In this document: in pieces, positions 5,625 through 28,300 of the stretch
How the letters are laid out: each line of letters begins with the position of its first letter
How positions within the stretch are numbered: position 1 is the first letter of the stretch
From: Marsupella aquatica
Taxonomy: Eukaryota > Plantae > Marchantiophyta
Length of the DNA stretch: 64,000 nt
Assembly: GCA_973895155.1 (NCBI GenBank)
Contig: OZ316893.1
Coordinates: 8,867,839-8,931,838 of the forward strand
Reading direction: 5' to 3'
The notes under the pieces: generated by a model
The model's input: only the letters and a program-made list of their open reading frames with translations
Database searches by the model: none
What the model was told of the DNA's origin: nothing
Program-made: the position numbers and the translations under genes

Positions 5625-5725
5625 CCCTAAACCTAAAACCTTAAACTTTGTTTGTGTCCTAAACCTAAAACCCTAAACTTTGTTTGTGCCCTAAATCCAA
5701 ATCCTAAAATGAGTTTGTGCCCTAA
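5625..5725. repeat. Minisatellite of about 31-bp units with telomere-like (ccctaaa) motifs
   Basis: About 3.5 copies of gccctaaacctaaaaccctaaactttgtttgt-like units. Confidence 0.7.
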
Positions 5726-5750
5726 ATTATTAAAAAAATGAATTTTAGAT

Positions 5751-6100
5751 TAATGGAGGGATATAAAGAGATTCCTGTGCGCGCGTGTTTGGAGCTTCGG
5801 CTCGGCATGAGATATTTCGTACATGAATCTTTTAATATCACCTTAACAATTTATTATTATTTGCAAATTGAGTGAAAGATTTATGGAGATAGAGAAACCC
5901 ATGTACGCACTTAGCTTGGAGCTTTGTCTCGGCATGTGATATTTTACATGGGTGTCATGATTCTTCGAAATTCTTTTCACTCAATTGGTAAATGATTGAT
6001 AAATTATAGCTATCACATAGATCCAAGTAGGAATGTCGTAACTGTGAAAGAAAAGAAAACTTTTGTGCGCGTGCTTGGAGCTTAGGCTCGGCATGGGATA
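5751..6100 (+). repeat. Left subterminal arm of the hAT element (inverted copy at 23453-23741)
   Basis: Three copies of a ttggagcttNgNctcggcatgNgata motif. gatagagaaacccatgt is shared exactly with the reverse complement of the right arm. Confidence 0.8.
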
Positions 6101-6353
6101 ATTCACAAATGTGTTCACCCTTCTTTTATCGTTATGACATTCAAAAGATTAATAAAAATGAATTGCAATAAAATCCAGAAACAATAATCCAGTGCATAAC
6201 AATCACGTGAATCCGTGATTCATAGGGTATTTGTGGGCAGTTGATTGAGTGAGTAAGGTTGTACTCATCTCACACACCATTCCAGGGAAGCCACAATGGA
6301 CTCGACTAGTCGTGTAGAATACAGGTAGTTGCTGGAAACGATTACTAGGGTTC

Positions 6354-7945
6354 TTGATGAAGGGGCTGAACCGGACCATGTGGCTCTCCAAGCACTCAGG
6401 AATGCATGAAACACTTGAGTATAAATCAACTGTTGGCAAACTCAATGGGAAGAAGAAACGAAGAGGGGGCAATGTTGAGGTGAAACAGGTTCGCTTTAAT
6501 GCAGTAGTGGCGATCTGGAAAGGAATATTACATCATTACACTCAACCTAAGCAATATGAGGAGAATGCGTTCGAGATGGATTTTACAAGGCACGGTCTAA
6601 AAGGATACAAGAAGTTTGTGAACGAGATGACTCATTATTTGCATGAAAGTGAGAGGATGAAGACACTTTCACACGGGAGCAGAAGGATGCATTTGTACTT
6701 GAGTGTGAGAAAGCAGGAGGATTCATTGACAACTTGGCTGTTGATTTGGAGATCAATATTTGGGATTTGATGGTGGCCAAATTAAACATGGATGATACTA
6801 CAATGCTTGAAAATCCTGGGATGTTTAAGCACAAGAGGAACTTGTTATCAACTTGGAGTAAAGAGTTGGCAATGGCAAAAGCTGAAAGCAACGTCAAATA
6901 TATAAACAAGGTGATGCAATTTGGGGATGTGAGTATCAGAAACGATGGAAAAGAAACACGTCCATCACGTGTACTTCCGGATGTGAGGAGTATCCATTTC
7001 TTGAAGCCTGAGCAGGTGCAAAATGCTCATTCCATCGGGACAAGTGTGCAAGGGGAGGTGTACACTTGTCACGTATTAGATTGCCCTCTTATTCTGAAGA
7101 ATGTCATACTAGTGGCAAAAAGATTCAAAAAAGGAGATAAGCATAAGAGGAGGACAGATACATTACAAGAAATGCTTATGGGAGGACTAAATCACAAGGG
7201 AATTGTTGGGGCTTTGGCAATGACGATTGATGATCCACCAAGACTTGTGTATGATCACTACAACGGAGGTGATTTGGGAAGCTTCATAGATAGATGTGGA
7301 TTGTGGTCAAAGAACAAAGGAAAATCACAAGGTTCCTCCAACATTGATTTCAAGTTTGTTTCTGAAAAGAAACTTTTTCTGGAGAACCGATTGGGAATTG
7401 CATTGGCGCTGCTTGAGACGTTACAATATTTGCATGATCACAACCGATTCCATTGTGATCTTCACTTTGGAAACGGTCATCTACATTTTGAGTATGAAGA
7501 TGATGTAGCCATCAAGGTGTATGTTGGCTTATGCAATTTTGGCTTGTCCAAACATAAGTCACAGTGCAGACTACCAGAGAATCGAATGTGGTCTACTCTT
7601 GCAGATAAAGTTGTAGCTTATAAAAAACAATATCCTCAATTAGCTCCAGAGCTTGTTTTGCCCACCCCAGTAGAGTATAGTGCTGCCACTGATATATATG
7701 CTTTGGGCAACATTTTTTAGAGTCTCTTTTTAGAGAATTGGGATGGAGTGTCCATGAGGACACGGTGGTTGGGTAGGGGTTGGAATACCTTGGAGCATGG
7801 TCATAAATTGGAAGCAATGGTCTGTGATATGATGTCCATCGAGGTGAAGAAAAGGCAAGAGTGTGCCTTTCGGAGTTTGAAGATGGTTCGGACATTCCCG
7901 GATTGTAGACTATTTGCCCAAAATAGTCCTTATCTTAGAGATTAG
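6354..7945 (+). pseudogene. Transposon-borne protein kinase with N-terminal extension (frameshift near 6650, in-frame TAG at 7718-7720)
   Basis: Kinase subdomains: SIGTSVQGEVY (Gly loop), VAKRFK, E in QEML, HCDLHFGN (catalytic loop), NFGLS (DFG position), APE, TDIYALG. ORF 7748-7945 is in the same frame and supplies subdomain XI (MMSIEVKKRQ). Confidence 0.8.
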
Positions 7946-8113
7946 AGATGAAACTTGACCCTCTAATTATTACATGAAGTCATTAAGTTACAAACAATCA
8001 GATGGTTATTATAAAGTGATATGTATCTTATTTGTTTATATTGTTATGCCATGCCATTTCATTATATTTGGATTTGTTGTAAATATGTTTTTATGTTTGT
8101 AGATCTTGCAATC

Positions 8114-10074
8114 ATGACGAAATAGAATTTGGATTCTGATGATGATGAAAAAGTTCCAAAAGACAAATATGCTCATTTATACATGCAAGACGCTCAAGAT
8201 GCTTATTACGATCATTTTGATCATGATATTCATGGAAACTCGCTATCTCCAACAAAAGGGTTGGAAGATGAGTCCGAACCCAATGCTTGTGACATTGGTA
8301 CGGCGACAAAAACACCTTGCCAAATTCAACTAAGTTGGAGGATGAAAGTGGCAATTTGGAGTGGAACATCTCAACAGAAAACGTGAAACCTCCTCATCAT
8401 GAATGGCCGATCAACGCCAAAGAATTGGAGATTTTGATGCCCAAAGCAGAGTTTGGCAAATTTGTGAAAAAGCTGTTTGACGATCCAGAAATGTGGACAA
8501 CAAAATCTTGGTTACAGGACAAATTTACCATGTCCAGGCTAACACATCGAGATGCTGCCACACATTGGCAACAAAGATTTTGGGAATATGCTCCAAATAA
8601 GGCAAACGGGAAAGTTAGTTCTGTTTATCCTCCTTTTGTTCGATGTTTGATTGCCGAGTTCATTCTAAAATGGAAGATGGATTACCGTTGGGAAAACAAC
8701 GATGGCAAGGTGACCCATTCCGTGCATAAATCAGTGCATGCTATTGCAGCAAACAGAGGAAAAAGTGCAAAGAAGGATGTTCCAACCATGACCTCTAACA
8801 AGGGGTCCAAAAGAAAAATGGATGAGGCGCAAAAGGTGAATACACAACCAAAGGAGAAAACAACATTTATCTCGCAATTCCTTGTGAAGCCAGCAACCAC
8901 ACCAAGCAATGTGGAGTCTACCAACAACAAAAGACCAAACATATCAGGGATTGGAAGCAGAACTCCACCTGTAATCAATATCAAACCTCCTAACAAGGAG
9001 AGGCTCAGCATGCAACATATATGCAAGAGCTTGGGAGCAGAGATTGGTGATTTGCTTGAGAAGAATCTTTGCACAAAGTATGTTGTCGAGCTTTGTGATT
9101 CTGGCAGCATGGAAAGATACAAGGCAAAACTACAAGAAGCCGATTTGAAGATACGATCACTAGAGAAGAGGCCCATGGAATCGGGGACCAATTCAGAGAT
9201 GATGTACTACAAGGCTCAATTATTTGACCAGATGGAGAAAATCCAGAAGTTGACTGAACAACTTGCCAACAAAGAAGGTCAAGCTAATCAAGTGCTAGAA
9301 CTTGAAAAGAAGAACAAAATCATCAAAGATCTTCAAAATCAGCTTGCATCTCAACAACTCATCATTACAAATTTGCACGAGGAGATAACCAATGTCAACA
9401 ATGGTGATTTGGGATGTGAGTCAAAAAAAGAAACATCATCTGATTTTGTTCAAATGCAGATCATTGATCCTACAGGACACAATACCCTATTTCCTGATGT
9501 GGAGGCTAGTGCAGAAGGCATTGAGAAATATTTTGACAAATGGAAGAAGGATGAAACTATGGCACCATTTGTTCGTGAAAAAGATGACAAGTGTACTTGG
9601 TGCCTCTATCCTTGGGGCCCAGAATCTGTTTCAATGTTGGGAACTTGCGGACATATATGGCATCATGCTTGTTTGTTCAAATGGTTGAAGAAGAGCAGAA
9701 AATGTTGGTGTCGCACACCATATTATGAACATGAATATCAATAACGAGGATTGTTGGACCAGATGCCATCAATGGAGACACAACAAGACACTGAAGAGAC
9801 ACAAGAGGGTGTAGTGATGACGCAAATAGATTCCACTCCCATTGAACACTTCACAATCAATGAGTATAATTTGTTAGATGGCGAATTTGATAGATTGCTC
9901 CTTAGTGGTCGATTCAATGAATGGAAAGAATATGCTGCAGCCAACCAGCCATCAATAGACGAGCAAAATATGCAACGATCTATTCATCGTCATCAACGAC
10001 GTCAACAACAGGCAGAAGTGAAAGCAGAAGTTCTTGACATCAACGGAAAAAAATATGAATACAATAGTCTCTAG
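8114..10074 (+). pseudogene. Transposon-borne coiled-coil + C-terminal RING-H2-like protein (putative E3 ligase), disrupted
   Basis: CTWC...CGHIWHHACLFKW...CWC RING-like pattern after a heptad-rich region. ATG at 8114 follows a splice acceptor at 8102. TAG at 8123, frameshift near 8315, in-frame TAA at 9742 followed by same-frame ORF 9751-10074. Confidence 0.7.
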
Positions 10075-10465
10075 ATTTTGATGGAGTTACTATTAGAGAC
10101 TTCTTTTTTCTTAGCACCTGGAAAATCATTTTGGACAATTATTTTCAAGTGTAACTGGTAAAGAAATATTGCAGTGGCATAATATATGACTTACCATGGA
10201 GTCACATTTTGGTCGAGCTCGTGTGTGGTGTTTGTGGATTTACATTACAGATTATTTAACCATTTTGTAGTATAAGTACCGTCAAAAATACCTCAAATCC
10301 CATGGGGAATAAAGTTTAGACTAGGCACAAGGTACATTATTTTGCAAATTGTGACACTTATAAAACTCAATAACTTATATTCATGGCCAAAAAATATATG
10401 ACATTCATTATTATTGTCAGTAAAGACAATACAATAGTAACAAAGCATGCTAAACATAACATTTC

Positions 10466-11516
10466 TCAAGGCTGTGAAAGAAAATTCCTAGTGTTTTTGT
10501 TGTGATTTCGTTGCAAAGCTTGATTCCACTCTTCCTCTGCAGCCCATGCAATTGGGTCGCGATTTTCCAGATGGACATTCCTCTGAGCTTGTTGAAATGA
10601 TGATGTTCCTTGAAATTCACGATCAATAGGATTGTTGGATGTATATGGATTAGTCATGGTCTGACCTCCATACTCATTGAAGATTGTAGTAGCTTCTTCC
10701 CATGGTGCACGTGTGTTGTTCAAAGATGTACTTTGAACATTATATGGTTGTTGAAAAGTAGCTGATCTGCTTCCCTCATAATGATGCCCTTATGTGCTAG
10801 TGTGTTGTTGAACAAAGTATGAGCTACTTGGGTCGACATCATTATGGACGTTTAATGATGGATAAGCCCAAGATGCGTTTGGTTGGAAAGGTGTTGCAAA
10901 ATCTGAATACAACGATGCATGATCTTCATCTTCAATCTGCGACTCGTCAATTGTAGGATACATCTCGAAATTCATTTCATTCTCCCAATCACCTGCATCA
11001 CTTACATCTGTACATATCTGGTGGAAGACGAGTTAAGAAGTCACCATCTTTATGTAATGATAATCCTTCCAAGGCTTCATCCGCATCATCAATTGCATCA
11101 AAATCTTCGATATCTTGTTGACCAAGGGCGGTATACGTTGCGTCACACCCTTCATTCTGAGTCTGCTCAGTGGATAATGGCCTGACACCGTCATTTGTTG
11201 CTCTTCTTTCATCATAACGTTGATATATAAACGTATGGGGATTTCTTACTTTTGTAAGCCCTTTCTCCACTCTCATGTTTGTGAATACAAACACTAAATC
11301 CTTTGCTCGATCATTTGTCAATCTGTTGCGACTTGCAGAATGAATAAATACATAAGAACTCCAGTTTCTTTCACACGCAGATGCGCACATTTTTTGGTGA
11401 CAGATTTTTCTAGCCAAAACTCTTAAATCTAGATAATCAGCACCGTATGAATGCCACCACTCTCTTGGACTTACTTGACCTATATTAGATTGGGCTCCTC
11501 TCATGGTTACTGTTGT
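10466..11516 (-). pseudogene. hAT transposase, C-terminal part (dimerisation domain plus acidic tail)
   Basis: PREWWHSYG...LARKI...SACERNWS...IHS..RNRL....KDLVFV is the hAT C-terminal dimerisation motif. The tail continues through a frameshift near 11000 and an in-frame TAA at 10790. Confidence 0.9.
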
Positions 11517-11556
11517 GTTTGGTACTCGGGGGTCTCACTATATGGAGGACCCCCCC

Positions 11557-11569
11557 ATCACCTGCGACG
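11557..11569 (+). promoter_or_regulatory. Putative internal transposase-binding motif ATCAC(C/G)TGCGACG (inverted partner at 21198-21210)
   Basis: 12/13 identical inverted motif starting at nt 33 and nt 31 from the two element ends. Its ATCACG core is also in the MITE at 895-1177. Confidence 0.6.
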
Positions 11570-11986
11570 TTTTCATGCCTAGACCCCCATACTTATTAAG
11601 TTGAAATTTTTTTTTCCTCCCTCTTTCTTTCTTCTAAGAGTCTAAAATCCAAATTGTATTGCCCCTATAATTTGTGAAGTAAAGTGTCACATATCAATAT
11701 AAAATGCCTAGAAAGAAAAGATAAGTCTATGTCAGTACCTTGTGAAGTCGTATGTCAGACATGGCACGCCCTGCAACAGTTCTTGCACCTTTGTCGACCT
11801 TAAACTTTGATCATTTCAATGCATCATTTATATTGTGTACCTAAAAGGTCATCCCAATATAAACCTTACGTGCATAAGTGGGATGGCCTTTAAGGTCACA
11901 ACATAAATAATCCATTCCACCCATTGATCACCAATCCCATGCTCCATCCATACTCCATTTAAAACTTATGTTGAGAGATGTAACAT

Positions 11987-12069
11987 GTGACGGAGGGGAA
12001 TTGAACCCCTAATTGAGAAAGGATCTCAAGTTGCCAATCCGTCACCCCCTATCCTATCCCACTACACCC
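11987..12069 (-). ncRNA. tRNA-like Pol III cassette inside the P-like element
   Basis: A-box-like GGGTGTAGTGG. B box GGTTCAATTCC (11997-12007) sits in a T-arm-like hairpin agggg/cccct. Closing stem gtgacgga/tccgtcac and an extra hairpin ttgaga/tctcaa. TTTT at 11961-11964. Confidence 0.45.
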
Positions 12070-12078
12070 ACTAATATT

Positions 12079-12158
12079 AACAAAATAAAACATATATACA
12101 GACTCTCAAAAACTAAACAACAAAATAAAACATATATACAGACTCTCAAAAACTAAAC
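12079..12158. repeat. Perfect 40-bp tandem duplication just 3' of the transposase stop
   Basis: aacaaaataaaacatatatacagactctcaaaaactaaac x2. Confidence 0.9.
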
Positions 12159-12171
12159 AGTAACATGATAT

Positions 12172-15100
12172 TCATACCATTGTTTGAAGATACTGATCCA
12201 AAGCACGTCTATCTATTGGATCCAACACATAGATACGATCCATAACCCCTTCTTTCATGGTTAAACTAACACTAGCAATGACCATTTCAATATCCATCCA
12301 TTTCAAATCAGTGGTATCATATCTGAATTCACTTTTGCTCTTACCAATAGGACTATACCAATTTAACAACAGTTCACAAATGTTACCTGATTGCCCTGCA
12401 AGTGGAGTTGGCCTATCCATCAAATCAATTGGTGACCGACAATTGCCCCACCTACTGCCATACTTCTGTCTCATTTGGACAATCCGACCCAACCAAAAAT
12501 ATTTCTTACCTGCTGAGATTGCCTCCACCACAACCTTATTCTTTCCTCCCTTTCTTTTTCCAGATCTAGTACTTGGAGCAGGACTATCATCAGACTCAAA
12601 TGCAATTGCACAATCAGTGCCAACATCAACAAAACATGAGTTAGGATTGACTTCTTGCACTTTTCTCTTGCCAGTACTATAGTATAGCACTTGTTTCACC
12701 CTTGTCAGCCTATCTTTTGACAAATGCGGATTTCCTACCAACTGGCTTACCAGAGTGGATTTGTAAATCACCTTGCCTTCATAAGTAACAGTAGGCACTA
12801 CCTTGGTACGATTCTGTACATTAGTTACAGCATGGACAACTGATCCAAACACATGCCGAACTTCATGACCTAATGTCTCAAGCTCATCTGAGGGGTCTAC
12901 ATCAAACTGTATATCATCTCTGTGTACATCATCTGAATGCATCTCAGGAACAACAATGGGATCTGGTTCTGTTAACCATGCATCTATTCTATTCAGATCA
13001 TCCTCAGGATCTTCCAATTCATGAAAATCTCCAGTTGGGCGAGGACCTATGTCTGGTGGTTGGTGCTCTACTTGCTCCTCAGAATCATTGCAAACAATTG
13101 CTTCCTTCAGAACCACCTCTAGTGGCCAGGTCTCACTTTCCACAACCCAAGGACATGTCCACCATCTCTTTCTAGCTGCTGGTAAGGAACTTCGTGGAGA
13201 CATCTGCAATTGATGCATAAGATCCTTAGCAGCAACAAAACCTTCTTTAAGGGCTGCAACCACTAATTCATTAGTCTCAATGAGAGAATAGTCAAGTAGA
13301 TTTGGTGCTTCCTCCCCTTCCCCTATAGGATGAATCTTCCCCCATACATGATCTTGTTTCTTATGTGAACGACCTATCTTCAAGCCTTCTGGTCCATATT
13401 CTAGGGCAGCAAGCCGGTTCAGTCCAACAGCACTATCCAATAGAGAGCCAAAATCATAATTCCGCTCATGGCCACTCATGCCTCCTACCTTGCTGAAGAA
13501 AATCTCACAACAATCTGAACCTAGCAAGTGGAAGGGAACACCTAGATGTGGGAACTTATCTCGAAAGGCACAAATTAATAGCACAATGAAATGACATGAC
13601 ATGTTAACATCATGAAAAGCCTGAATAGACATCATGTCTTTCTCAGTGTGTGCTGCAAAGTTCCCACCCACTGAATGGTCACCAAACCTCAACCACAATC
13701 TCCACAAACGTAGAAAGAATGAAACCTTGGATGCTAACACAATACGGGACCTCAAATCATGAACTGGAGAAAAGAAAATATCTAAGTAATCTGCACAAAT
13801 CTCCAAGTACAACTGAGTTCCTAAACTTCGTTCATGTTGTACATCTCTCCTCTCATACATATCTTTCAGACATTGCTGCACTCTTCTTGCTGCTATTCGT
13901 TGTGGACCTGCCCAATTCTGCCGGTCAGTCCTATTCACATCATCCCAAGCCATGCCATGTTCATGAATTGGATAATGATTGTAGACATTAGCTACATAAG
14001 ATAAAGATGCATGTTGATCTCCTAGCACCAGTAAAGAAGACACTCTGTCTAAGGGGTTTATCATCTTTTTCCCATTATGAGGTTGGTCTTGGTCACCAAA
14101 GCCATACAAATCTCCATTTGGTAGAATTGAAACAGAGTATGTCCACCCTTCCCACCCAACTCCGTACCTTGGGTATGATCCATTCTGCCCTCTGTAATCT
14201 TCCAGCATCAGCTTTCGGCGACGTGCATCACCATCACTAGCATGTCCAAGCAAAGGGCCTACCATAGCTCTACAATATTCATCCCAAAAAGCCTTTAACT
14301 GGACCCAATGCTCTCGTACCCAAGAAGCTGTGAACTTATTACAAGTTGGAAGTGCACACACAGCCAATTTAGGTAAGGACTCATGCAGAGGATTCACAAT
14401 CACAACTCGGGCATACATGCACTTGGGGCATTGTTCAAATGTACTTACAATTTTATCATACCCCTCATCACCTTCACCAACTAGAATTTCCAAACCATAG
14501 GAGCATACATGCTGCTCTGAAGGTCCACAGAAACCAATGAGAGTATCATACTTTGCCTCCCACCTGAAACACAGACATGCAATTTTTCAATATCACAGCA
14601 ATTCCAGCCAAGTGCTACTTGTAAAGTCATTAAAAAAACAATTGGAAAAATGTCCAGTTCCAATTACCTAGGGCGTTCTTTGATCCTTGTTTCATCCTCA
14701 GCAAAGATAACAGGCACATCCCCCTCAATGCCCAATGAGTGCTTTGCAGCAGACAACACTCTAGCAATCTCCTGAAAGGTTTCCTTCCGTAACCCGGTTT
14801 GAAAAGGTGTGAGTTTTGCTCTATCACGTTTTAGGGTCACAAGGCTAGGGGCTGTCAAGTTTCGTGCAAAACAATGAGCAACTTGACGGCCCCCAAATTG
14901 GAACATAGCCTGAGCAATAGCTCGAGTCCTATTACTGTAACGATTACCTTTTGGCTTCCTGCCTAAATTGCGAGCTACATCCTTCAAGAAATCCCACAAA
15001 CCCTCCTTACCACCAAATGCACCATTCCTGTGTCCATTCAAAATACTCCTAAGAAACAATCTCAAATCCTTCCTGTCTGCTGCAACTCCTAACAACTCCT

Positions 15101-16748
15101 CTAGTTTTCGTTTCCTGGTGCTCAAGGCACATACTTTCTGAGCCTGCAAAGCTAACAACCAACGCTCTTTTCGTCGCACAGAGTTCAGGTTGTGCACTTG
15201 ATCTCTTAACTCTGTGTTGGTCAAATAATCCAAACGTATACCACCAGCAGTGGTTCGGCTCCCTCTGTGGACTACTGCTTCCGCTTCCCTGTGCACCCGT
15301 CCACGAAAATCATCTTCTAGTGTTATAGAATCACATTCACTACAAGTTAGATTTTCAAATCCTCCTCCATTCTGTGATAACCTCAAGCAATCCTTGTGTC
15401 TAAAACAGCCTGCTATACTCACAACACTCTCTCTACTTGGATGGAAAACATCCAAGCAACAACTTGGCTCACAATGCCATGTAATTCCCCCAGACTGATC
15501 ATCTAAAATGCCAGAAATATCATAAGATATACCCTTCCATAACAGTCGAGGCACACCTCTCTCTACCCATAATCCCCAGCAAAGCAAACTCAGACCAAGA
15601 TCAACAGATTCACACACACCTGAACCTGAACCTGAACTGCTGCCTGTCCGGGACCCATCATCTTTAAAGAACTTCAAAATCCCGCTCTGACCAGGATGTA
15701 GGTCCCTAGAATCAGTCCTCTTTGGCCTGCCCCTCTTCCCAGACCTCAAGGCAAGCATTTTTGTGTCATGCCTAGTCTCCAATGCATCCAAGTGATCTCG
15801 ACTCACTAAGTGTGTCCTCAAATTGGGCTCCAAGGTAAGCTTCTTGGGGCACAAGTCAGTGTGAAGCATTCCACAGACAGTACATCGAACCTTAAACAGG
15901 AAAGACCTGTTTACATACTCAGGAGTACTGGGATCAGGAACAATAGAGAATAGTTTGCCATCATCCCCAAGCTCAGCATTCAATCGTTGAACTATCTCAA
16001 CACCTACTTTGATGGCGTCTGCATGATCATATTCTGGCTTCTCAGAGATGTCTGCTACCTGAACCAAAGTAGAAGGAATGCCCCTTCTCCGACAATAGTT
16101 ATCCTTGTGCTTATTGAAGACCAAGTGTTTGGTCTTAAAATTACTAAAGCAATTGGAGATGGATTTAGGGTTCTGAGAGTTGTCTGCATTGCCATAAGTT
16201 TCCCTACATTCAAGACACTCCAGATGCCCTCGAACATCTGTCCCCTCATCCCAGGTACGAATTCTCCAATTGTGATCACCATAACCCTTCTTATGTACCC
16301 ATTTCTCTAACCTCATCCACTCATCTTTCCATAGCTTTGATGGGACATCTCCCATCAATTGTGACTCAAAAGAAGCCCTTACAGGGGAGGGTGCTAGTGC
16401 CGTTGGCCCCAGTTGTGGTGTCCCAGTATTTGGACCCAATGATGCAGGAGTGCAAGGATGACAGGGTACTGGTGGGATCCTCCCACCATCTCCAAGTTCT
16501 TGTTGTACAACAATAACTCTTCCATCCAGCTCAGACAGATCAATTAATTTCTCATGTACAAGTTTCACTCGACCAGGAAGTCTCTCATCCCAAAAATCAA
16601 AGTCAAAGTCTAGAGTAGAGGCAATACGAGCCCTAAAATCATGTAGGGTGTGTCCTTCTTTGAATGACAAAACACAAATTGGTAAATCAGCCTTGTCATC
16701 CCCAACTTTGCGTATTAATTTAACAGAGTTGGGTTTAGGGGCTGCCAT
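12172..16748 (-). CDS. P-element/THAP9-like DDE transposase, 1,490 aa; exons 16748-14668 and 14563-12172, 104-bp GT-AG intron
   Basis: Splicing ag|GTAATT...TTTCAG|g joins the 694-aa and 773-aa ORFs in frame (DETRIKERPR-WEAKYDTLIGFCG). Motifs in P-family order: RYS...APSLVTLKR helical region, FAEDET, ASDGD, DQPHNGKKMIN (DxxHxxK), DRQN, GSDCCEIFFS (catalytic E). N-terminal CxxC...H...H zinc fingers and a KRGRPKR AT-hook. Confidence 0.85.
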
Positions 16749-17243
16749 TGCAATACAAATCTAGAACATGCATAGCACCATTGCTTTTGGAGTTGATAAC
16801 AGAAAGACCTGCACAAATACATTTGAAATACACACAAGGGAAACACATTAGGATCTTCAAGAGATGCAATGACAACATACACATTCTCATGTAATGTACA
16901 TAATGTCAGCATACATTTAACAATAGAAGTGCTAATAGGCCAAAACACTTTATAATGCAATCCATCATACATGCAAATGTATTCAGTGAAAATCATGATA
17001 TACCGCTAAAGTTGGATAAAATATCTTTGGACAAAATATCCTTTTCGCCTGCTTTTCTAACAATTCCCGAAGTTTAGTGCTTCTGCTCATCAAAATGCAG
17101 CACTATTAGTGACCTTAATTATGACAAAATGTCAACACTAATAAAATTGGGTACTACCACCCATGATGCACCTTAAGTATGTGCCTTGCTCATACCCCAC
17201 TAAGACGTTGAAACCTAAGTAATAGGTTTGTTCATTATTCAGA

Positions 17244-17918
17244 TCATTGGAGCCATGAAATGTGGTCCCTGATTGGAGTCTTGAGGTGTGGATCAATAGG
17301 ATGACGGGGGCAATAAAACATCTGTCGCTGTTGTCCATGTGCTTCATGGTCCCAGATGTCCCTATCATGAGCGAACCCTTTGCTTTTGATCATCTGGAGA
17401 CAATCTGTATGCCAGGCATTTGGACATCGTAGACATTGTACCATGTTCTTGACCATCTGACCCTCAAGACTCTGATAACATGTCACACATGTATGCAGTG
17501 GGCAGGACTTTGCATCAGCTACCAAACACCCAAAGCAATAAAATCGTACACAAAAACGATCAGAGCATTTTCGCACAATTGTAGGTGACGGTCCCACAGT
17601 GCGGCACCCATAACACATGGCCTGGTCCTGGTTACAATTTGGGCAAAACCATGGCTTCCCTCCATGATGGAGGGGAAGGACTACACAGGGGCAAGAGTCA
17701 TTAGGGGCTTCATCTCCAACCACATAATGAAATTGCCTGTGACATGGCCCATCACAAATTACCAACTTCCCACCATGCTCACAAATTGCACAAACATGAG
17801 GGCTAGTTTGTAGAATCTCTTGCTCAGAGAACAACGGAATACGCAATACCTCTTCCAAAGAGGCTCCTCTGTCAGAGGACTGTGTTGCTTTCTTTATGTT
17901 TGAAGTCCTTGTCGGCAT
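17244..17918 (-). CDS. Stand-alone EDM2/NSD-type tandem PHD-finger protein, 224 aa (transposon cargo)
   Basis: CAICEHGGKLVICDGPCHRQFH...WFCPNC...CYGC...CSDRFCVRFY..C...CPLHTCVTC...CLRCPNAWHTDCL...YCPRHPIDPHLKTPIRDHI follows the cysteine spacing and C-terminal signature I recall for the plant EDM2 PHD module. Intact ATG-to-stop frame; splice acceptor 7 nt upstream of the ATG. Confidence 0.8.
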   Translation of the reverse strand: MPTRTSNIKKATQSSDRGASLEEVLRIPLFSEQEILQTSPHVCAICEHGGKLVICDGPCHRQFHYVVGDEAPNDSCPCVVLPLHHGGKPWFCPNCNQDQAMCYGCRTVGPSPTIVRKCSDRFCVRFYCFGCLVADAKSCPLHTCVTCYQSLEGQMVKNMVQCLRCPNAWHTDCLQMIKSKGFAHDRDIWDHEAHGQQRQMFYCPRHPIDPHLKTPIRDHISWLQ

Positions 17919-18234
17919 GGTTCAACTGCAATCATCACAAAGCACATCACATATGAGGGGGACATGATGATAGTGAGCAATCCATAGACAAAGATAAGGT
18001 TAATCATAGCACCTGCTCCAATGATCTGCAAACCTCCCTCCCAGATGAAGTCAACTACACAGTGCAACCTGAACACCCACCAACCAAGACATACATAAAT
18101 ACAATGCCAGCTTGCAAAACTTTGCCACATAATGGGAATGAAAAATATTCTCATATATCATGGATGGTACAATTGCAGCCTTGCAAACAAAGGCCTAGTC
18201 ATATATGAACAACGCATCCATGTACTATCAAGGA

Positions 18235-18633
18235 CTACAATGTCAAGCATCCATGGGTTGTAACCTTAGCTTGATCTGATATACTATCTGGGGCTACAAT
18301 ATCAAGCTCAGTTGAATGTGGAATACTATCAGGGACTACAATGTCAAGCGTGTCCGGGATGACAATCTTGCGTAAAAGACACTCATTTTGAGGCCAAATG
18401 GTTGGCCTTATACAAGAGCACTTCCAACGACGTGTGACAACTTTGCCATGCTTTCCCATGTATGTCCTAGTAACAAGCCTTCCACGCATTTTCAAGCAGA
18501 AGCAATGGAACCATTCAAAATTCCCATCACCAACCCTGCACTTGACACAAGGTTCACACCAGCAGCATTCATCTGGATGCTGCAGAAGGAGCTTCTCATA
18601 ATTCGCTTCTAATATAATGCCCAATATAGCCAT
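18235..18633 (-). CDS. Small Cys-rich protein with a divergent ING-type PHD-like motif (transposon cargo)
   Basis: CCWC..CVKC......EWFHCFCL...WKCSC resembles ING PHD EWFHxxC...WxC. ATG start. IV(I/V/A)PD repeats at the C-terminus. Confidence 0.5.
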   Translation of the reverse strand: MAILGIILEANYEKLLLQHPDECCWCEPCVKCRVGDGNFEWFHCFCLKMRGRLVTRTYMGKHGKVVTRRWKCSCIRPTIWPQNECLLRKIVIPDTLDIVVPDSIPHSTELDIVAPDSISDQAKVTTHGCLTL

Positions 18634-19288
18634 GGCACTATTTTTTTATACTCGGTGAATGGCCAGACGATTAGACGTGCAATGACAGGCAACTTACAAT
18701 TCACTAGGTACACTATGTGTTCTAGCAAACTGCTTCACCGCAAGTGTTGGTGCTCACTGCTGCAAGCGCTGATGACAACCTCTACAATTCCTTTTGCAAC
18801 CTGTGAACAAAATTGAAACCACCATTCAATTTCTAAGTTTCAAAAACTTCCCATTACATGAAGACAACCAATTGGCCATGCATGTTACTACAGCAATAAA
18901 ATAATAACCCAATCGCTCAACAGACCTGAATAGCTAACCTGAATAGGATCAAGTTCAGAATCCAGAATGGTAATGCCCTTGCCCAGAAGCTTGAGAAACA
19001 AAAGAGAATTTAAAATCAAGCACGAGCGTCATCCACGTCTTGACCAGGCCCGCCACCCAGTATGGCTGGAGGCTGTGGTCCCCCCTGGCTGAGTAAACAC
19101 TTAAAGAAGTCTTCTCTTCTAGATGACTTAAAGAAAATTGCAGGAACCAGCCAACGGGACACCAAGGCATGTAATAGAGAACCAGATTTGTGCGGGTGTG
19201 TGGGGGACGACAGAAGTCAAGTTACATGATTTTTTTCCTGGGGTCCAGCCCATGGATGGAGATCATGTAAGGTGGTCAATCATGGCAA

Positions 19289-19693
19289 GTGCAATCATTG
19301 GAGACCTGTACTCGCGGTTACTCTAACGATGCATCCAAAAAACATGTGCGTCAAGTCGTCGATGCGGACACAGAAGGAGAGATGAGTATGGACAACGTCG
19401 AGACAAATGACGACAATACTGAGCTAGTATTCGGCTGGGAAGTTGGAGCTGGATCTCAGCAGTGGCTCCAAACCTTATCTGCGAGGGCATGGCGAGCTCT
19501 GGAGGACAAAATACTCAAAGAGCTTATCGCCATTCACGGAGCTCAGAACAGGAATTTTATAGCTGAAAAGCTAAACGGGCAGATCAGGTGCTTCCTCGTC
19601 TATGACCGCTACCAAATCGACTCTAGGTGTGCCATGCGTGATAGATTTGGGCGTCAAATAGTAGCAAGCAAGCAAGTACGATCGTCAAAGTAG
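19289..19693 (+). CDS. Hypothetical 134-aa ORF inside the P-like element
   Basis: Open frame with protein-like composition, non-ATG start, no recognised motif. Confidence 0.2.
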   Translation: MQSLETCTRGYSNDASKKHVRQVVDADTEGEMSMDNVETNDDNTELVFGWEVGAGSQQWLQTLSARAWRALEDKILKELIAIHGAQNRNFIAEKLNGQIRCFLVYDRYQIDSRCAMRDRFGRQIVASKQVRSSK

Positions 19694-19869
19694 GCAGCGC
19701 CTACCTCCCGATTGAGCAACGCAGCAATGCAGCTCCAATCCTGGCACTCCGGTTTGAGATATCGCAACACTCCCTGCAGTAGCCACCTCCCGTTTCAGCA
19801 AGCTAGCAGCTCCCGTTTTAGAAAGCAGCAATGCAACACTCTCGACACCCACCTCCCGGAGCGCAACAC

Positions 19870-20700
19870 TCTTGCTCGATCCTTCACTCCCGGGTTCACT
19901 TCAAGCAGCAGCGCAGCTACAAAGTCTCGCTCTCCCCTTCACTCCCGGGTTCACTTCAAGCAGCAGCGCAGCTGCAAAGTGTCGCTCTCCCCTTCACTCT
20001 AATCAGCACACGCAACTGAGAAGTCTCGCTCTCTCCTTCACTCTAATCAGCGCACGCAACTGAGAAGTCTCGCTCTCCCCTTCACTCTAAGCAGCAGCGC
20101 AGCTGAGATGTCTCGCTCTCCCCTTCACTCTAAACAGCAGCGCAGCCAGGAACTCTTGGTCGATCCTTCACTTCAAGCAGCAACGGCAACAGCACAGCCG
20201 AGAGCGCAACACTCTCGCTCTCCCCTTCACTCCAAGTAGCAGCGCTTCACTCGATCCTTCGCTCGATCCTTCGCCGAGAACTCTCGCTCTCCCCTTCACT
20301 CTCGCTCTCCCCTTCACTCCTTCGCTCGATCCTTCGCCGAGAACTCTTGCTTGATCTTTCACTCCAGCCGCAGCAGCAACGCAGCTCGATCCTTCTCCGA
20401 GAAATCTTGCTTGATCCTTCACTCCAGCCGCAGCAGCAATGCAGCTCGATCCTTCACTCCAGCCGCAGCTCGATCCTTCACTCCAGCCGCAGCTCGATCC
20501 TTCACTCCAGCCGCAGCAGCAACGCAGCTCGATCCTTCACTCCAGCCGCAGCAGCAGTGCAGTCGAGAGCACAACAGGAGTCGATCCTTCACTCCAGCAA
20601 CAGTGTAGTCGAGAGCACACTCTCGCTCGATCCGACCTTCACTCCAAGTGCAGTCGAGAGCACACTCTCGCTCGATCCGACCTTCACTCCAAGCAGGAGC
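19870..20700. repeat. Subterminal tandem repeat array of the P-like element (ctcgatccttcactccagccgcagcagc-type units)
   Basis: More than 20 copies of ccttcact cores with variable gcagcagc spacers. Explains the overlapping repetitive ORFs here. Confidence 0.9.
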
Positions 20701-21240
20701 ACAACTGGTTTAGACCCCGTTTAGGCCATTTGCTGCAAGGTACAAACAAAAGAGACTCTGTTGAGGCAAAGAGCGGGTGGGGCCAAAGGGATAGTGGAGG
20801 GAAACGACACGGGAGGGACTGACAAGGGCCAATTGAGGTAAACGAGACACGTTAAACAGAAAAATTTCAAACTTAATCCCGGTCAAACCCTAAACGTGAG
20901 TCCCCATAAAACCAGATCATTCTCAAATTCTTGCCATGTTAACATATTAGAAAAATTAGGAAAATATATTGGGAATGTTATGTGTGCCACGTGTACCAAT
21001 GACATAGTGACACGTGTACTTTACATAGTCCGACACAAAGACCCCCTAACTTCTTTGTATGCCTTCCATCTACAAAGTCAAAAATATTAATATCCCTATT
21101 ATTCTTACAAGTTGTCCAACATATAAAGTTGGCCCTATTGTTCTTACACAAATCTTCTTAAGTCTTCCGAGAAACCCAATTAACGGACCCTATACTTCGT
21201 CGCACGTGATATGAGATTTTCGCGGAGTGAGACCCCCGAG

Positions 21241-23112
21241 GTTTGGTATCTTTTTTTGCGCATCAATTGCTTGCAATTGTATGGCAGAAATGAGTGCATT
21301 AACCTCACGATCATGGTTGACCCCTTCCTTCACCTTGTGTTCGGCATATCGGGCAATGTACTCATTGAAACCTCGACATAGTTCTCCATCTCCAGCAACA
21401 TCTAGGTCTTCATCAAAAAACATTTGAGGATTGATATATGCTGCAGCTAGCATAAAATTGGTGGTAAGAGATTCTCTTCAATCCATGTATACTTTTAATA
21501 TCCTTGGCTTCAAGAACTCTGTTACCAATGGACATTCCTCCATGCTTGCCTTCAAATCAGTAATCCCTCTTTTCAAACTCCAATACAACCAGGCTGATTG
21601 GGGTGAAGCACCATCAAATTCGTGAAGCATCTTCACCAACGGAAGAAAGAAGTTCACTGTAGCTTTCACATCGGCCCAAAATTTATCTTGTTGTATCCAC
21701 CCTTTCAGTTCTTCTGCCTTGGCCCTTGTCATGTGACCATTTGATTTTGCACGCACAGGAAGTCTATCACGATAAGACTCCCATTTATCATCAATGACCA
21801 TTTGTTGCAAAGCTCCTCTTAGCTCCAATGCTCTTTGCACCATGAGAAAATTTGTTGCAAATCTTGTTGCATTTGGATTTGGTAGTTTTTTGTAAGTCGA
21901 TTTTCTCACAAATATTGCGGAGAGCTTTTGGGACGATGAAACTGCTTTTACTATCCAACTCAAGCGTTTAAAAATGCTTTTGAATGGATTCTGTCTACTC
22001 TCATCTAGCACTACATTCTTATGACCACACATATCTTCTAGTAACAAATTGAACACGTGGGCAGCACACAAACTCCAAGTGACATGTGGATATTTTTTCA
22101 TGACTATCTCACAACCTGCTACACGATTTGCAGGCGCACCATCAGTTACAATTTGAACGATGTGATCTGGACCAATGTCATCGATATATTTCAGCCACAT
22201 CTCTCCAAGATATTTTCCATCTTTCCTATCAGCTTGTGTCGCATTCCAACTATCCAAGAAAAAATCACCTTTAGAAGTCAACAACATGACGTTCATCAAA
22301 GGTTCACTACGAATGTTTTCCCATCCATCTGATGAAACATAATAACCAAAAAGTTTTGTTTCCTTCATGATTTTGGTGATGTCTTTTGTGAGATCTTCCT
22401 TGGCTTCCTCCAACAACTTCATTCGCAAATTCCGCATAATGAGAAGAGAATACCCATTTACAATACCTTTTGAAGTCTCATGTATTGCTTCTCGAAAGTA
22501 AGGATTCTGTGAAACATTGAATGCAATACCACTTGTGTAGAAAGCTTTTGCCCAAAGCTTGTCCAAATACGCTCTATGTGGAACTTGATAAGCATCCATA
22601 ATCGGGTTTGAAAGACTTCCTGCCCAAGCCATATGAGTCATATTTGACTCATTTTCCATTTGAAAATGGTTAGACTCTCGTGTGGATGCTTGTGAATGGG
22701 AAGTTCCAATCTTTGGCCTGCGACCCCTGACATCCCGCAAGATATGGGTTCCATCCCTTCGTTTGTAGTTGATGTTTGATGGAACTTTGATGACATTGTA
22801 CATTCTGTTGATTTCATCCAACTTCACATGACCATACAGGCCTAGGCATGGTGGTGCATTCCCTTTGATGATGTTTCCCATCAAATGTGCTTTGGCTCGT
22901 GTTGCATGAAAAGTAATATATGTTTTACAAAACTTGCATTTTCGATACATACGGTTTGCATCATTAGATGTTGAAGGCGCATCACATTGTTCGAAATATT
23001 TCCACACCGTAGAAAATTTTGCACCATGCTCTCGCGAATGATTTGCTCCATGCCTAGGGATAGTGGAACGATATCCAGATTCACCGGACTCATTATCATC
23101 AGAAGAAATCAT
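21241..23112 (-). pseudogene. hAT transposase, N-terminal part (BED zinc finger + DUF659/RNase H-like core), in-frame TGA at 21478-21480
   Basis: VWKYF...KCKFC...RAKAHL (BED); SSDGW; IVQIVTDGA; CAAHVFNLLLEDM; TRFAT; AAAYINP. Interrupted at 21241 by the nested element. Confidence 0.92.
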
Positions 23113-23452
23113 TGTAAAGAAAGATGTACATGCAGAATTCAAATTCTATAGTGTACCGTCAATAAAATGACAGTGTCATCTCCTCTCCAACGCACACTGA
23201 ACATACATAAATACAACAATACAAAATAAATATTTATTGTATACTAAACTTCATATAGCAGATACAATGAACCCCAAGAATAATCACATTTCACAACATT
23301 TTGAGTTCCCTAAATTTTATCATAGTATTTTTGTTGTTTTTATGTTTGGTTGTAACAAGTATAAAAGAGTAGGACACTTTGATGAATTACCACAATCTGA
23401 GTCGAGACTCCAAGATTACGCACCATTGTTTCCCGATCTCTCATACTTGCTT

Positions 23453-23741
23453 ACATCCCTACTTCGTCCTAAGTTATAGAATATCTATAACTTAACAATC
23501 ACTTCTTTATAAAGCAGAAATATTTTCAGGGAAATCGTGACACACATGTGAAATGTCACAGACTGAGCCAAAGCTCCAAGCCTACGCACATGGGTTTCTC
23601 TATCCTTTGAATTTTTTTTGCTTACTAAATAAATGACGTTAAGTTGTTAAGTTAATATATAGAACTCTTGTATGAAATATCCCGAGCCGAGCCAAGGCTC
23701 CAGACCCGCGCATACAAAAATTCATATATATTACTCCATTA
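23453..23741 (-). repeat. Right subterminal arm of the hAT element (inverted copy of 5751-6036)
   Basis: Reverse complement aligns colinearly with 5751-6036 (roughly 70% by eye), including two ggagc-N4-ctc motif copies. Confidence 0.8.
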
Positions 23742-25333
23742 CAATTCACTAAAGAAAAACATCTCATTATAAGCCTCCTACCCCCCGCTCCCCCCTCCCC
23801 CCTCCCCCCTCAAGACAATTTGCAACTGTTTGCATTAATTGTCAGTTGCACAGGCTCCTTCTTTGGTTAACCTTGGAGCCAGCGCATGGTGTCACGTCTG
23901 CAGTAATATCTGGCCAGGATTATCGGGTGACTGTCGCCCTTGTCATATAGAAGGATCAAATGGTAGGAATGTCTCTCTTATCTATTTCAAGTAAGATCTT
24001 TGCTCAATCTAAAGCATGTGGATAGGTTCAGTCTAGGTTAAATGTGTTTTTATGAGAAATCATTAAGTAACCTGGTGTAATTTTTCCTTGTAGTTATCCC
24101 AGGTCTTAGCCCAAAGACCTCCAGCCCGTCTGATAATGCCCTTGCCCCGCACACCTAAAAGCATCTCCAGGGGTGGGGTCTATCAAAGTGGACTAGAACG
24201 AGGACGAGACTGCATTCTCCTGGTGGTTTGAATTGGGTCTGGTTAGCAATGGTCTCTGTCTCGTAGGTTGGCGTGTGATCGAGGTTCTGGTGAGAGTCGC
24301 CCTGGTCTGAGGAGTGGCTGGATAGTTCTGGACTTCTGGTCACTAATAGAGGGGTAGAATAATTATGTATCCTTCCCGGCCTGGGGTTCTGTGCTCTCTT
24401 TCCAGGCCACCCTTTCTGGGTTTGCCCGGTTGGGCTTCTACAGCTCCTTTTACCTGTGGTCTTGTGTGACTTACTCCCTTAGTTGGTCTTCCAGGTTTTA
24501 GATAGAAAAGTAAGATTTGTGGATTCCCCCTCCTTGGTGCTGACTTGCAAATTGCTTTCGAACATTGCATTGCCCCGGATTGTCCCTGGCTTTGATACTG
24601 GTAGCGGTTGGTTTCGTTTGTGCTGGTCACCTGGCTTGCTACTGTACTTCTTGTATGGGTAGGTGGGGGCCGGGCTTGATCCAGTCGTCCTGCTTGTTCT
24701 GGCTTTCCTTCCCCTTTGGAGTCTTTGTGGCTTTGCCCTGGCCTTTTTGGTCCTCCCTTGTTGTGGGGGTTTAGCGGACTTTAGTGGGAAATAAAAGGGG
24801 AAAAAGGAGAAAATGGCTGGTGACTGAATGCAATATGGGGGGGGGGGGGTTCAATTTTCAGGCCTTCAAATGATGGGCTAAATGAGTTTAGCAGTCATTA
24901 TATTCACCTCTAAACCACTGACTCGAGAGGCTGTGCTTGCTATCATGTCACAACGCACACTAAACACACAACCCCTGGTGTTTCCCCCTCACTATATATA
25001 GACCACTAGTGGAAAGAGAATTCCCCAGTGATAGCGTCTAGGGATATGTACCACAATCGGATGGAAGAGGGGTCTGGTGTGTGTAAACTGTCCTTGGTAG
25101 ATATATTATAATTTACAAGTAGTAATTTAAACGTTAACTTGCTGAGAGCCCATTTGAGTTATGGTCAGAGTTGCCAAGGTCCATCCAGGTATTTTGGAAC
25201 AACATATTGGCCATGCAGACTTTGTTCACCACTAGCCAGAAACCCAGTTGAGTCATAGAACCATTCACTTTATCCAACAGTGGTTCTGGAAATTCCGTGA
25301 ATCCTGAGGTTCAGGAGAACTCAATAGCGAGGA

Positions 25334-28300
25334 TGTAGGGTCAATCTATTTGATCTCTTATTTGTTGTAACCATTTACTCTAAACCATGGTTAACCCCTA
25401 ACCCTATCCTGAAGGGGTAACATGGGTTAACACCAACCCCAACATGTAACCCTATGGTGACTATATAAGTCACACCCATAATGGAACACAACAGCGAGTT
25501 GCAAGTCTCTCCATTGTCACACAACACGTTATCAGCGCGATAGCATCTAAATTTTTTTTTTCAGTTTGGAGTTAAGGTAGGATAATTGGAGTACGGATTT
25601 CAGACAAAGAAATTGACTTCCAATGTTGCGTTTTTAGCCCCACCCCACATCAGTAACTGCCACCGATTCAAATCACACCATAATTTAAACTTCGGATCCT
25701 CTGAATAGTCCACGAATCCTTACGGAAAACACACAATCCGTATATAATTGATTAGTGACACTATCGGAGAGGCATGAATCACTTTGAAATAGTGTTTTCC
25801 CGTTCAAATTCGACTCAATTTTTTTTATATCTTATTGTTCCGCCACGGAAATCCTGAGTTTCTTTTATCGCCAAGGAAAATCCCGTGGATAAAAAGGCAC
25901 GAGTGATTGAAGTAATTGAGAACGACATAGATTTGATATTAATCAGAACGCGGACAGTGATGTGTTACAGATTTGAGATACTATGGCCACCCTGGAGAAA
26001 TTACACTTTCCAGCCCTATTGGCAGATGGCAATAATTACTTAACCTGGTCAATAGATGTAGAGACCTACTTCGCATCAATACAACTAGAGGATACATTAA
26101 TTACTGATGACAATTTAACATTGCAACAGAAAGCCAAAGCTGTATTTCTACTTAGACAGCATTTGACACCATCACTGAAGACACAATATATGAGTGATCT
26201 TAATCCCCGTCTATTATGGGACAAATTAAAAGCTCGATTTGACCATATGCGAGAGGTCTGGCTCCCAGAAGCCCGCAGGGATTGGTTTAATCTACGTGTC
26301 ATGGATCATACTTCTATAGCAAATTATAATAGTTCTCTATTTCGTATTACATCTCAATTGGAGATGTGTGGCCACCCAGTTGCAGACTTAGACAAAATCG
26401 ATAAAACGTTGAGTACTTTCCCAGAGGCCAACATCGCCTTGGGAACTCAATACAGGAATATGCAATTCACAACTTATTCTAACTTAATTGCACATCTCCT
26501 AGTAGAGGAGAAACAACAAATTGTCTCTCTACAGAATGCAAGGAAACGACCACCAGGCACTGCACCAATACCACAGAAACCAGAAATTAATTACAATGCC
26601 CCAGAAGACCAACAACGAAATATAAGAGGCCGGGGTACACAAAGAGGTGGATATAGAGGACGAGGTCGCAACTCAAATTATAGTGGAAGGGGAAATCAGT
26701 ATGAAAATACCAGAGGTCGAGGCAGCAGAAGCCGTGGCCAGGGTAGAGGAAGAGGACGCGGCAGAGGTCACGCCCAATCATCTGACAACACACGAGAAGA
26801 CCGAATGTGTTATAGATGTGGAAAAATTGGCCACCTAAAGAAAGACTGCTGGGCTTCTGACCAAGCGGCTAAGAGGCACTCAGAAGCAAGAGCTAAGTTA
26901 AAGCAAAATCCAGATGGCAACTATATGGAATTGGAAGAGGAGCTACCATCTTATCGAGAAGAAACTGATATGATAGACCAATCCAACGCTGAAGCTCATC
27001 TGGTGACAGCAGAGCCACCATATCCCTCCTCCAACGATCCCAATTTAGGTATCATTGATAGTGGGACATCCCACACTATCCTAAAAGATAGGAGTTATTT
27101 CCAAGACATCACTCCATCTGCCAGGGTAATGACAACCATATCAGGTACGAATAAGATTGAGGAAGGAACAGGAAAGGCTACTGTCAAATTTCCCCAAGGA
27201 ACAGTCATTAACATCGAAGCAGCTATCTTTGCACCAAAAGCTACTCGAAATTTGATTAGCTTCAAAGACGTTGTTGCTAATAATTATCAACTCCGCACAG
27301 CAATGCTCCAGCAGAAACCTACTTTGCAAATAGTAGCCATGACCACAGATGGAATTCAAATCAAAGAGATACTACCTCTAATACCCCCGGGTTTATATGC
27401 AGCCCCAATAACAGCGAACTATGCCACAGCAGAATCAAATAATCTTACATACCTCTGGCACTGTCGACTGGGGCACCCGGGAATAAATATGTACCGTCGC
27501 ATCATCAATGACTCACGAGGAATCCCTAAAGGAGTGCGTCCATCTATAAATCATAAGCAATGTCTGGCATGTTCTCAGGGGAAGCTGAGTACACGCCCAG
27601 CTACACAAAAGACCATCTATACTATCCCTAAATTCCTGGAACGTCTAAATGCTGATGTCTGCGGGCCAATACACCCTCCAAGTGGGCCTTTCAGATATTT
27701 TTTAGCCATTGTAGACTCTTCAACTAAATGGCTCCAAGTTTCATTAATTTCTACTCGTAACCTGGTCTTTGCCAGAATCTTAGCCAACTTATTAAAACTT
27801 CGAGTACAATTCCCAGATTGTCCAATTAAGAAATTGCGAGTGGACGGGGCAGGGGAATTTACCTCCAGAGCATTTGACGACTTCTGTATGACAGCGGGGA
27901 TCGACATTGAATACTCAGTTCCTTACGTCCATTTCCAGAACGGCATAGCAGAGTCAGTCATAAAAAGGATTCAAATGATAACAAGGCCACTTCTATTGAA
28001 CTCTAAACTACCACCTTCAGCATGGGGACACGCTGTCCTCCATGCAACAACTTTGCTTAAGTATCGGCCGTCAGCATTTAATACTAAAACCCCTCATCAC
28101 CTTGCATTCGGTTTACCCCCTGATCTTTCACACATTAGAGTATTCGGATGTAAAGTGATGGTACCCATCCTTGGGCCACATCGATCCAAACTTGGCCCAC
28201 AGAGAAGAGAAGGTATTTATATTGGCCATGACTCCTCGTCTATTATCCGCTATCTGGAATCTAGCACAGCTGATGTATTTAAAGCAAGACACGCTGACTG

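Follow-up and report, generated by a model that had tools for sequence, protein, structure and literature searches.

A THAP-less transposon with a predicted P-type transposase core in the liverwort Marsupella aquatica

The P superfamily, in its broad sense, is defined by terminal inverted repeats (TIRs) together with a target-site duplication (TSD) of 7–8 bp, the P element itself making TSDs of 8 bp, and P elements occur in Chlamydomonas. They have also been recorded in a few fungi, in the section of PMC5751038 that deals with them. As described in the relevant parts of PMC7776569, P cleavage is dependent on guanosine triphosphate (GTP) and has a 17-nt stagger, a 66-kDa P repressor arises by intron retention, and the THAP domain is restricted to animals. 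For land plants, six TIR superfamilies are listed, without P, in Table 1 of PMC9033089. In 2025, 1,007 plant genomes were screened with Pfam for 17 superfamilies, P among them; seven proved to be active, and P is not named with these in the part of PMC12973397 that reports them. Here, a 9.7-kb element (positions 11525–21240) was examined in a 64-kb stretch of DNA from the liverwort Marsupella aquatica (i.e. the window; 64,000 nucleotides, positions 8,867,839–8,931,838 of the forward strand of contig OZ316893.1, assembly GCA_973895155.1), to which all coordinates refer. With a probability of about 0.83, this element is an intact and young cut-and-paste DNA transposon that encodes a single large transposase with a predicted P-type core and likely represents a THAP-less P lineage long resident in non-seed land plants.

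The termini of the element start with CTCGGGG and form an inverted pair that is perfect over 15 bp and breaks at base 16. Identical 8-mers (GTTTGGTA) flank the two ends, and the perfect TIRs and TSD described in an initial annotation of this DNA were both recovered. Fifteen perfect 15-bp inverted pairs were detected in the window, only this pair having an 8-bp duplication; five base shuffles of the window produced 2–5 perfect pairs each, none with a TSD. A 13-bp subterminal inverted motif sits 31–45 bases inside both ends with a 12/13 match, a level reached in 1/500 shuffles, and its core was found at the same place in the ends of three related loci (i.e. L001, L002 and L004). This motif is the natural candidate for a binding site of the transposase zinc fingers. 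The element splits a gene for a hAT transposase, which regains in-frame continuity across the site once the element and one TSD copy are removed. In two contigs of run X3, exactly 8 ambiguous letters lie between 11516 and 21241, equivalent to a single copy of the 8-mer, and one contig of run X2 joins 11524 to 21251, these empty-site contigs possibly coming from other copies of the hAT family. As the hAT gene is interrupted and is restored in frame on removal, and as empty sites were recovered, the element was considered to be a real insertion. The in-frame stop of this hAT copy is replaced by another base in contigs of four runs and is consistent with CpG decay of the host copy.

The transposase coding sequence runs on the minus strand from 16748 to 12172 and, when spliced, specifies 1,490 amino acids (aa) with no internal stop, in agreement with the uninterrupted frame and canonical 104-bp intron of the initial annotation. 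Without splicing, the frame stops after residue 694. Twelve relatives align gap-free over the junction and four loci (i.e. L002, L003, L007 and L011) pass the same point in one intronless genomic frame, homology thus supporting 14564–14667 as a putative intron. The two closest relatives, P0001 and P0002, are annotated as beginning just past the intron position, which suggests that both share the intron while other branches are without it. A perfect 40-bp tandem duplication (12079–12159) lies just past the transposase stop, and contigs of X2 and X3 skip approximately one unit of this repeat.

All of the transposase motifs listed in the initial annotation are present in the stated order, and a catalytic D-D-E triad (D685, D804 and E1047) and a C/DxxH signature (D853/H856) were located. 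D685 is invariant in 29/29 rows, D804 is conserved in 36/37, D853 and H856 in 35/35, and D1044 and E1047 in 30/30, the D1044/E1047 spacing being that of D528/E531 in P. The second catalytic Asp (i.e. D804) was assigned by analogy, D806 being invariant too, and the C/DxxH signature is common to P and four other superfamilies. An AlphaFold model of exon 2 was built on a 37-sequence alignment (mean predicted local distance difference test score 79.7; predicted template modelling score 0.81). In Foldseek searches with this model, E ≤ 0.001 was reached by the Drosophila P transposase only (6P5A/6PE2, probability 1.00), Hermes having an E of 0.25. Comparison with 48,161 chains using VIA-align placed model residues 1–391 on residues 240–569 of the 6P5A chain (Z 17.8, root-mean-square deviation (rmsd) 3.5, 307 residues), an alignment that takes in the RNase H core and the insertion domain. 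Other transposases scored far lower (ISCth4, Z 6.6; RAG, 5.0; Hermes, 4.9 with an rmsd of 8.2). Top matches in the ESM Atlas were P-transposase clusters (0.94) with PF21787/8/9 and 194/256 features in common, and the ten best family matches fall in one P family or clan. The predicted fold of the core is therefore closest, by a wide margin, to that of the Drosophila P transposase, in line with the P-type assignment that had been made from motifs alone.

These comparisons also bear on whether the element is a divergent hAT, MULE or other member of the C/DxxH group. An 8-bp TSD would fit hAT; the structural scores of Hermes and of the MULE-related ISCth4, set against 17.8 for P, largely refute such an origin, and the hAT Pfam models matched the host gene and not the transposase in the same scan, making this explanation extremely improbable. 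Kolobok elements have TTAA as their TSD, unlike the 8-bp TSD found here. For KDZ/Zisupton, no Pfam match of any kind was obtained with either exon, no KDZ structure or dedicated profile being part of the comparison.

The putative DNA-binding half of the protein is of a different type from that of animal P transposases. Exon 1 gave no THAP match, nor did any of 28 aligned relatives. The proposal that THAP had been replaced by two CxxC..H..H zinc fingers and an AT-hook was correct in that these parts are present and conserved, and incomplete in that a third zinc module, a BAH-like barrel and a separate PHD-finger open reading frame (ORF) occur besides. The third module is also present in several distant relatives. 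By position, exon 1 probably contains a coiled coil and a helix-turn-helix (HTH) region as well. Residues 1–85 (window 16500–16748) correspond to a loosely conserved domain of approximately 80 aa in full-length plant members; a distant relative (i.e. P0060) has a weak N-terminal PB1 match, and the extreme N-terminus may accordingly have a ubiquitin-like fold. At the other end of the protein, the last 160 or so residues (about aa 1330–1490) were modelled as a beta-barrel in which conserved aromatics are present. The top 9 of the 50 rows listed by the structure search were BAH-containing proteins (rmsd 2.5–6.2, 76–104 residues), none at Z 8, whilst Foldseek with the C-terminal model gave no match at E ≤ 0.001 and the ESM Atlas no usable match with this domain. 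The modelled likeness to BAH is a lead only. In another distant relative (i.e. P0063), a weak match to an OTU-like protease (E 0.0066) is inserted ahead of the C-terminal domain.

Relatives of the transposase were sought among proteins and metagenome contigs. A search with the core recovered 64 proteins from 3,771 candidates, the named ones comprising 27 from Riccia, one from Adiantum, one from Nymphon and one eukprot entry, with no named seed plant among the 64. A profile search gave 94 proteins from 7,996 scored candidates, adding Calypogeia fissa and full-length proteins of 1,423–1,530 aa. Named land-plant relatives are from Riccia sorocarpa, R. fluitans, Calypogeia fissa (CAM6105892.1) and Adiantum nelumboides (MCO5595094.1). 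Metagenome contigs contributed 77 related loci from 249 candidates, and no relatives were found in viral contigs. One locus, L002, holds a complete element of 6,096 bp that has an 8-bp TSD, 26-bp TIRs that begin like those of the window element, and one intronless frame of 1,520 codons; the 8-bp TSDs of both elements lie within the 7–8 bp of the P superfamily. L002 was the only complete element among 48 loci of at least 3 kb in a strict TIR and TSD scan, a looser scan adding low-complexity matches only. Two trees were constructed, the first from 82 rows (24 near-duplicates dropped from 106) and the second from 42 hand-picked rows. In both, the window protein joins two unnamed proteins, then Riccia (99) and Calypogeia (99). 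A clade with support of 100 holds the window protein and all named land-plant rows, Adiantum included, with the animal and unassigned rows outside, a pattern that would fit long residence in non-seed land plants. At L027:2702, the transposase match stops exactly where a sequence nearly identical to the L001 3' end begins, as would be expected if one family member had inserted into another. In a separate subclade of marine and other metagenome loci (L056, L060–L063 and L065–L077), the core is in several pieces, reflecting introns or decay.

The family is young, as judged from its perfect ends and near-identical copies, and the initial annotation was right on this point. Among the pieces listed, contigs of X1 differ from the window copy by 8 in 4,778 bases, those of X3 by 18 in 2,542 bases in five deep pieces (a sum that omits one shallow piece, in which 42 of 393 bases differ), and those of X5 by 65 in 3,068 bases. 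Contigs of X1 and X2 join 11760 to 20984, which would correspond to a deletion derivative of approximately 493 bp that keeps both ends. Contig depth in X1 was about 450–530 on the element and 8–22 for minor variants, a depth that is not a copy number and that hints at tens of copies. Horizontal transfer between the source organisms of the runs (i.e. A, B and C) was considered and is not claimed; these organisms may be close kin because their runs cover the hAT flanks too.

An intact-looking copy may still not work autonomously, with the intron left unspliced or the family silenced, and with the PHD ORF as passive captured DNA. The coding region has a CpG observed/expected ratio of 0.27 as compared to 0.58 for the window, as would fit methylation over a long time, none of the 77 related loci has the PHD ORF, and a minority of X3 contigs carry a compensating pair of one-base indels in this ORF. 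Such inactivity is unlikely given the gap-free intron junction, the near-identity of the copies and the 8/11 best-supported coding differences that are synonymous among those listed (6/9 in the transposase and 2/2 in the PHD ORF).

Several results weigh against the reading of the element as a young P-type transposon. Neither exon matched any Pfam family at E ≤ 0.1, the P models PF21787–9 and PF12017 included, an NCBIfam scan of the transposase gave no matches and sequence searches of the PDB returned nothing useful. Identity to 6P5A is only 12–14%. None of 29 aligned members matched a P, THAP, hAT or MULE family at E ≤ 0.05, and PF21787 was matched by only 2/25 of another set of relatives (E 8.8e-8 and 0.012). 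When GTP contacts were mapped by spacing alone, equivalents of D528 and D444 were kept, K400/V401 were replaced by N/W and N447 was not kept, whilst the S409 equivalent is Ser in 17/35 rows and Ala in the window protein. As these contacts are kept in part, use of GTP by the transposase is plausible only, by analogy with P, and a GTP-like cofactor in the helical insertion domain is only partly supported. The BAH match of the barrel is weak (Z 5.8–6.4; Foldseek probability 0.89–0.90, E about 0.4). Both trees hold family members only, without canonical P transposases, and have midpoint roots and organism names on a minority of rows. The window's assembly may itself derive from runs X1 and X2, which are then not independent of it, and both the splicing of 14564–14667 and transposase expression are predictions from sequence.

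Some of these results would also be expected if the clade were a separate superfamily sister to P, or part of the poorly defined Novosib group, sharing the fold and having its own termini (CTCGGGG), its own architecture and possibly no need for GTP. Canonical P termini start with CA. The termini of this element start with CT, identity to P is low with no match to hidden Markov models, there is no THAP domain, the C-terminal fold differs, and the family forms a broad, coherent group that takes in animal and unassigned members. Novosib, in the passages of PMC5751038 and of a bioRxiv DDE survey that describe it, is mainly found in Archaeplastida and has a poorly defined RNase H domain. Against a separate superfamily, the match to P takes in the whole insertion domain and RNase H core (307 residues), the next transposase scoring 11 Z units lower, the ten best ESM Atlas family matches are to one P family or clan, and the animal member from Nymphon matches PF21787 above the curated cut-off (33 as compared to 24.6 bits). 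A separate superfamily was consequently judged to be improbable, somewhat more so than a non-working copy, and the element is most likely a member of the P superfamily in its broad sense, outside the THAP-bearing animal families.

A second ORF, co-oriented with the transposase and ending approximately 500 bp upstream of its ATG, encodes an NSD-type triple PHD-finger cassette. A frame of this length was obtained in 1/2000 shuffles. The ORF was not found in the 77 related loci and is therefore, as far as seen, specific to the family of the window element; no longer homologs were present among 88 candidates, which is weak evidence. This cassette may resemble the PHD cassette of plant EDM2. EDM2 is described, in the part of PMC7529245 concerned with it, as an H3K9me2-binding PHD protein. 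Acceptor-like AG sites on the minus strand were noted just upstream of the PHD ATG (17919–17930) and some 70 bases before the transposase ATG (about 16815–16830), raising the possibility that both proteins share one promoter through alternative splicing. The 5' non-coding part contains a GC-rich tandem-repeat block that is far less CpG-depleted than the coding region. Neither the PHD ORF nor the C-terminal barrel, the subterminal motif or the hAT host gene had been noticed in the initial annotation.

By analogy with P, the N-terminal zinc fingers and AT-hook would bind the subterminal motif in place of THAP, with the HTH region holding the TIRs. D685, D804 and E1047 would coordinate two metals and excise the element, and the 3'-G ends would be joined to the target at positions separated by 8 bp. 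A GTP-like cofactor would probably be used by the helical insertion domain, as in P. Deletion derivatives of approximately 0.5 kb would be mobilised in trans. More speculatively, since the intron lies nine codons past the first catalytic Asp, its retention would yield a protein of 694 aa that keeps every DNA-binding part and lacks the active site, and that is a candidate repressor comparable to the 66-kDa protein of P. Least supported is a role for the BAH-like tail and PHD cargo protein in reading histone marks, which may steer insertion or counter silencing. A fuller scenario combines these parts into an overlooked, still-active and Pfam-invisible P lineage in liverworts, ferns and probably mosses, with plant-style zinc fingers for THAP, a P-like repressor made by intron retention, and BAH and free PHD histone readers that steer insertion into silent chromatin or shield the element from it. 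This combination is tentative, the odds being clearly against all of its parts holding together.

Table 1. Positions of the element, its predicted products and the interrupted host gene in the window (protein features in residues of the spliced transposase)
Feature	Position	Strand or exon	Remarks
TSD copies	11517-11524 and 21241-21248	no strand	GTTTGGTA; identical 8-mers; single copy at empty site
TIR, 3' end relative to minus-strand genes	11525-11539	+	15 bp; related termini in L001, L002, L004
TIR, 5' end	21226-21240	-	15 bp
Subterminal inverted motif, 3' end	11557-11569	+	12/13 identical to copy at other end
Subterminal inverted motif, 5' end	21198-21210	-	partner of 11557-11569
Transposase exon 1, aa 1-694	14668-16748	-	two C2H2-type fingers, AT-hook, third zinc module, probable coiled coil, probable HTH region, D685
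Predicted intron	14564-14667	-	104 bp, GT-AG, phase 2; nine codons past first catalytic Asp
Transposase exon 2, aa 695-1490	12172-14563	-	RNase H core (D804, E1047), D853/H856, helical insertion domain, acidic linker, C-terminal beta-barrel
Zinc finger 1, C2H2-type	C178/C181/H208/H214	exon 1	conserved in full-length relatives
Zinc finger 2, C2H2-type	C289/C292 or C300/H313/H319	exon 1	conserved in full-length relatives
AT-hook, RGRP	about aa 339-342	exon 1	conserved in full-length relatives
Third zinc module	C390/H451/C454/C469/C472	exon 1	conserved in the alignment
PHD ORF, 224 aa, NSD-type triple PHD-finger cassette	17244-17918	-	Pfam PHDvar_NSD E 5.8e-8; NSD2 structure E 4.2e-6
GC-rich tandem-repeat block	19850-20693	no strand	periods 22-87 bp; 5' non-coding part
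Host gene, upstream part: hAT transposase (DUF659), split by element	21249-23145	-	Pfam; in-frame stop 21478-21480
Host gene, downstream part: hAT dimerisation domain	11001-11516	-	Pfam

The hAT host gene seemingly lies within a much larger element (window ~4900–23810). Signs of this element are inverted-repeat-like blocks (5767–6114 and 23533–23604) and G-rich/C-rich tracts near 5260 and 23790, with a kinase ORF (6653–7717) and a RING-finger ORF (8293–9741) as possible cargo. TIRs with an 8-bp TSD were looked for around the hAT element and were not found. The remainder of the window is ordinary for plants, comprising two leucine-rich repeat (LRR) receptor kinase genes, a GT47 exostosin gene and copia fragments (25977–28496, 29541–32978, 35818–36816, 41816–44779 and 56945–58483). 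The neighbouring genes are plant LRR receptor kinases, with GSO1 as the best PDB match (E 6.5e-132). The receptor kinases and the GT47 gene mark the host as a plant, and the tree position points to a non-seed plant, perhaps a liverwort.

Full-text searches of the literature found no P elements in land plants, with Repbase, Dfam and subscription papers outside their scope, and the earlier claim that this family is undescribed in land plants holds for the literature so covered. The chance that an entry for this kind of land-plant family already exists was put at about one in four. As the 2025 screen relied on Pfam, which does not detect this clade, the clade would have been missed; Marchantia and Adiantum capillus-veneris are included in the supplement of PMC12973397, Riccia and Calypogeia are not. 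The element is accordingly regarded as an unnamed THAP-less land-plant variant of the P superfamily, present in liverworts and a fern. With a young and intact family of P type in non-seed plants, the land-plant list would grow by one TIR superfamily, and profile-based surveys would be shown to overlook a whole clade. GTP-assisted chemistry is known only in Drosophila P, and the family provides a natural test of whether such chemistry extends across the superfamily, as well as of end recognition by a P transposase that has no THAP. Being intact, the element is also a candidate for gene tagging in bryophyte and fern models. Should the BAH-like and PHD parts prove to be readers of histone marks, this system would be a DNA-transposon counterpart of chromodomain-guided retrotransposons.

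Comparison with known systems places the element closest to P of Drosophila melanogaster. In both, the RNase H fold, which is predicted for the element, is split by a large helical insertion. Both also have a D..D..E triad ending in DxxE, a DxxH motif, TIRs with subterminal inverted motifs, an 8-bp TSD, a 3'-terminal G, an intron that would truncate the protein if retained, and deletion derivatives. Differences from P are the size of the transposase (1,490 aa as compared to the 87-kDa P protein) at 12–14% identity, three zinc modules and an AT-hook in place of THAP, a predicted C-terminal beta-barrel where the C-terminal domain of P is all helical in the description given in PMC7776569, a TIR of 15 bp rather than 31 bp, an element length of 9.7 kb with a second PHD ORF, a plant host and only partly matched GTP residues. 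Vertebrate THAP9, zebrafish P-like elements, Galileo and 1360 are further close systems of the P superfamily; THAP9 differs in carrying an N-terminal THAP domain, and Galileo and 1360 in having TSDs of 7 bp. For the second ORF, which matches NSD-type PHD models, the closest known system is the PHD1-3 cassette of NSD2, from which the ORF differs in being a stand-alone 224-aa protein within a transposon, with no SET or other domain. Proteins of the same family in Riccia, Calypogeia and Adiantum are annotated as hypothetical or unnamed, three Riccia fluitans fragments being labelled 'Transposase' in UniRef with no superfamily. Amongst these, the Riccia proteins share 50–60% core identity with the window protein and the 1,529-aa Calypogeia protein is 37% identical over the whole length.

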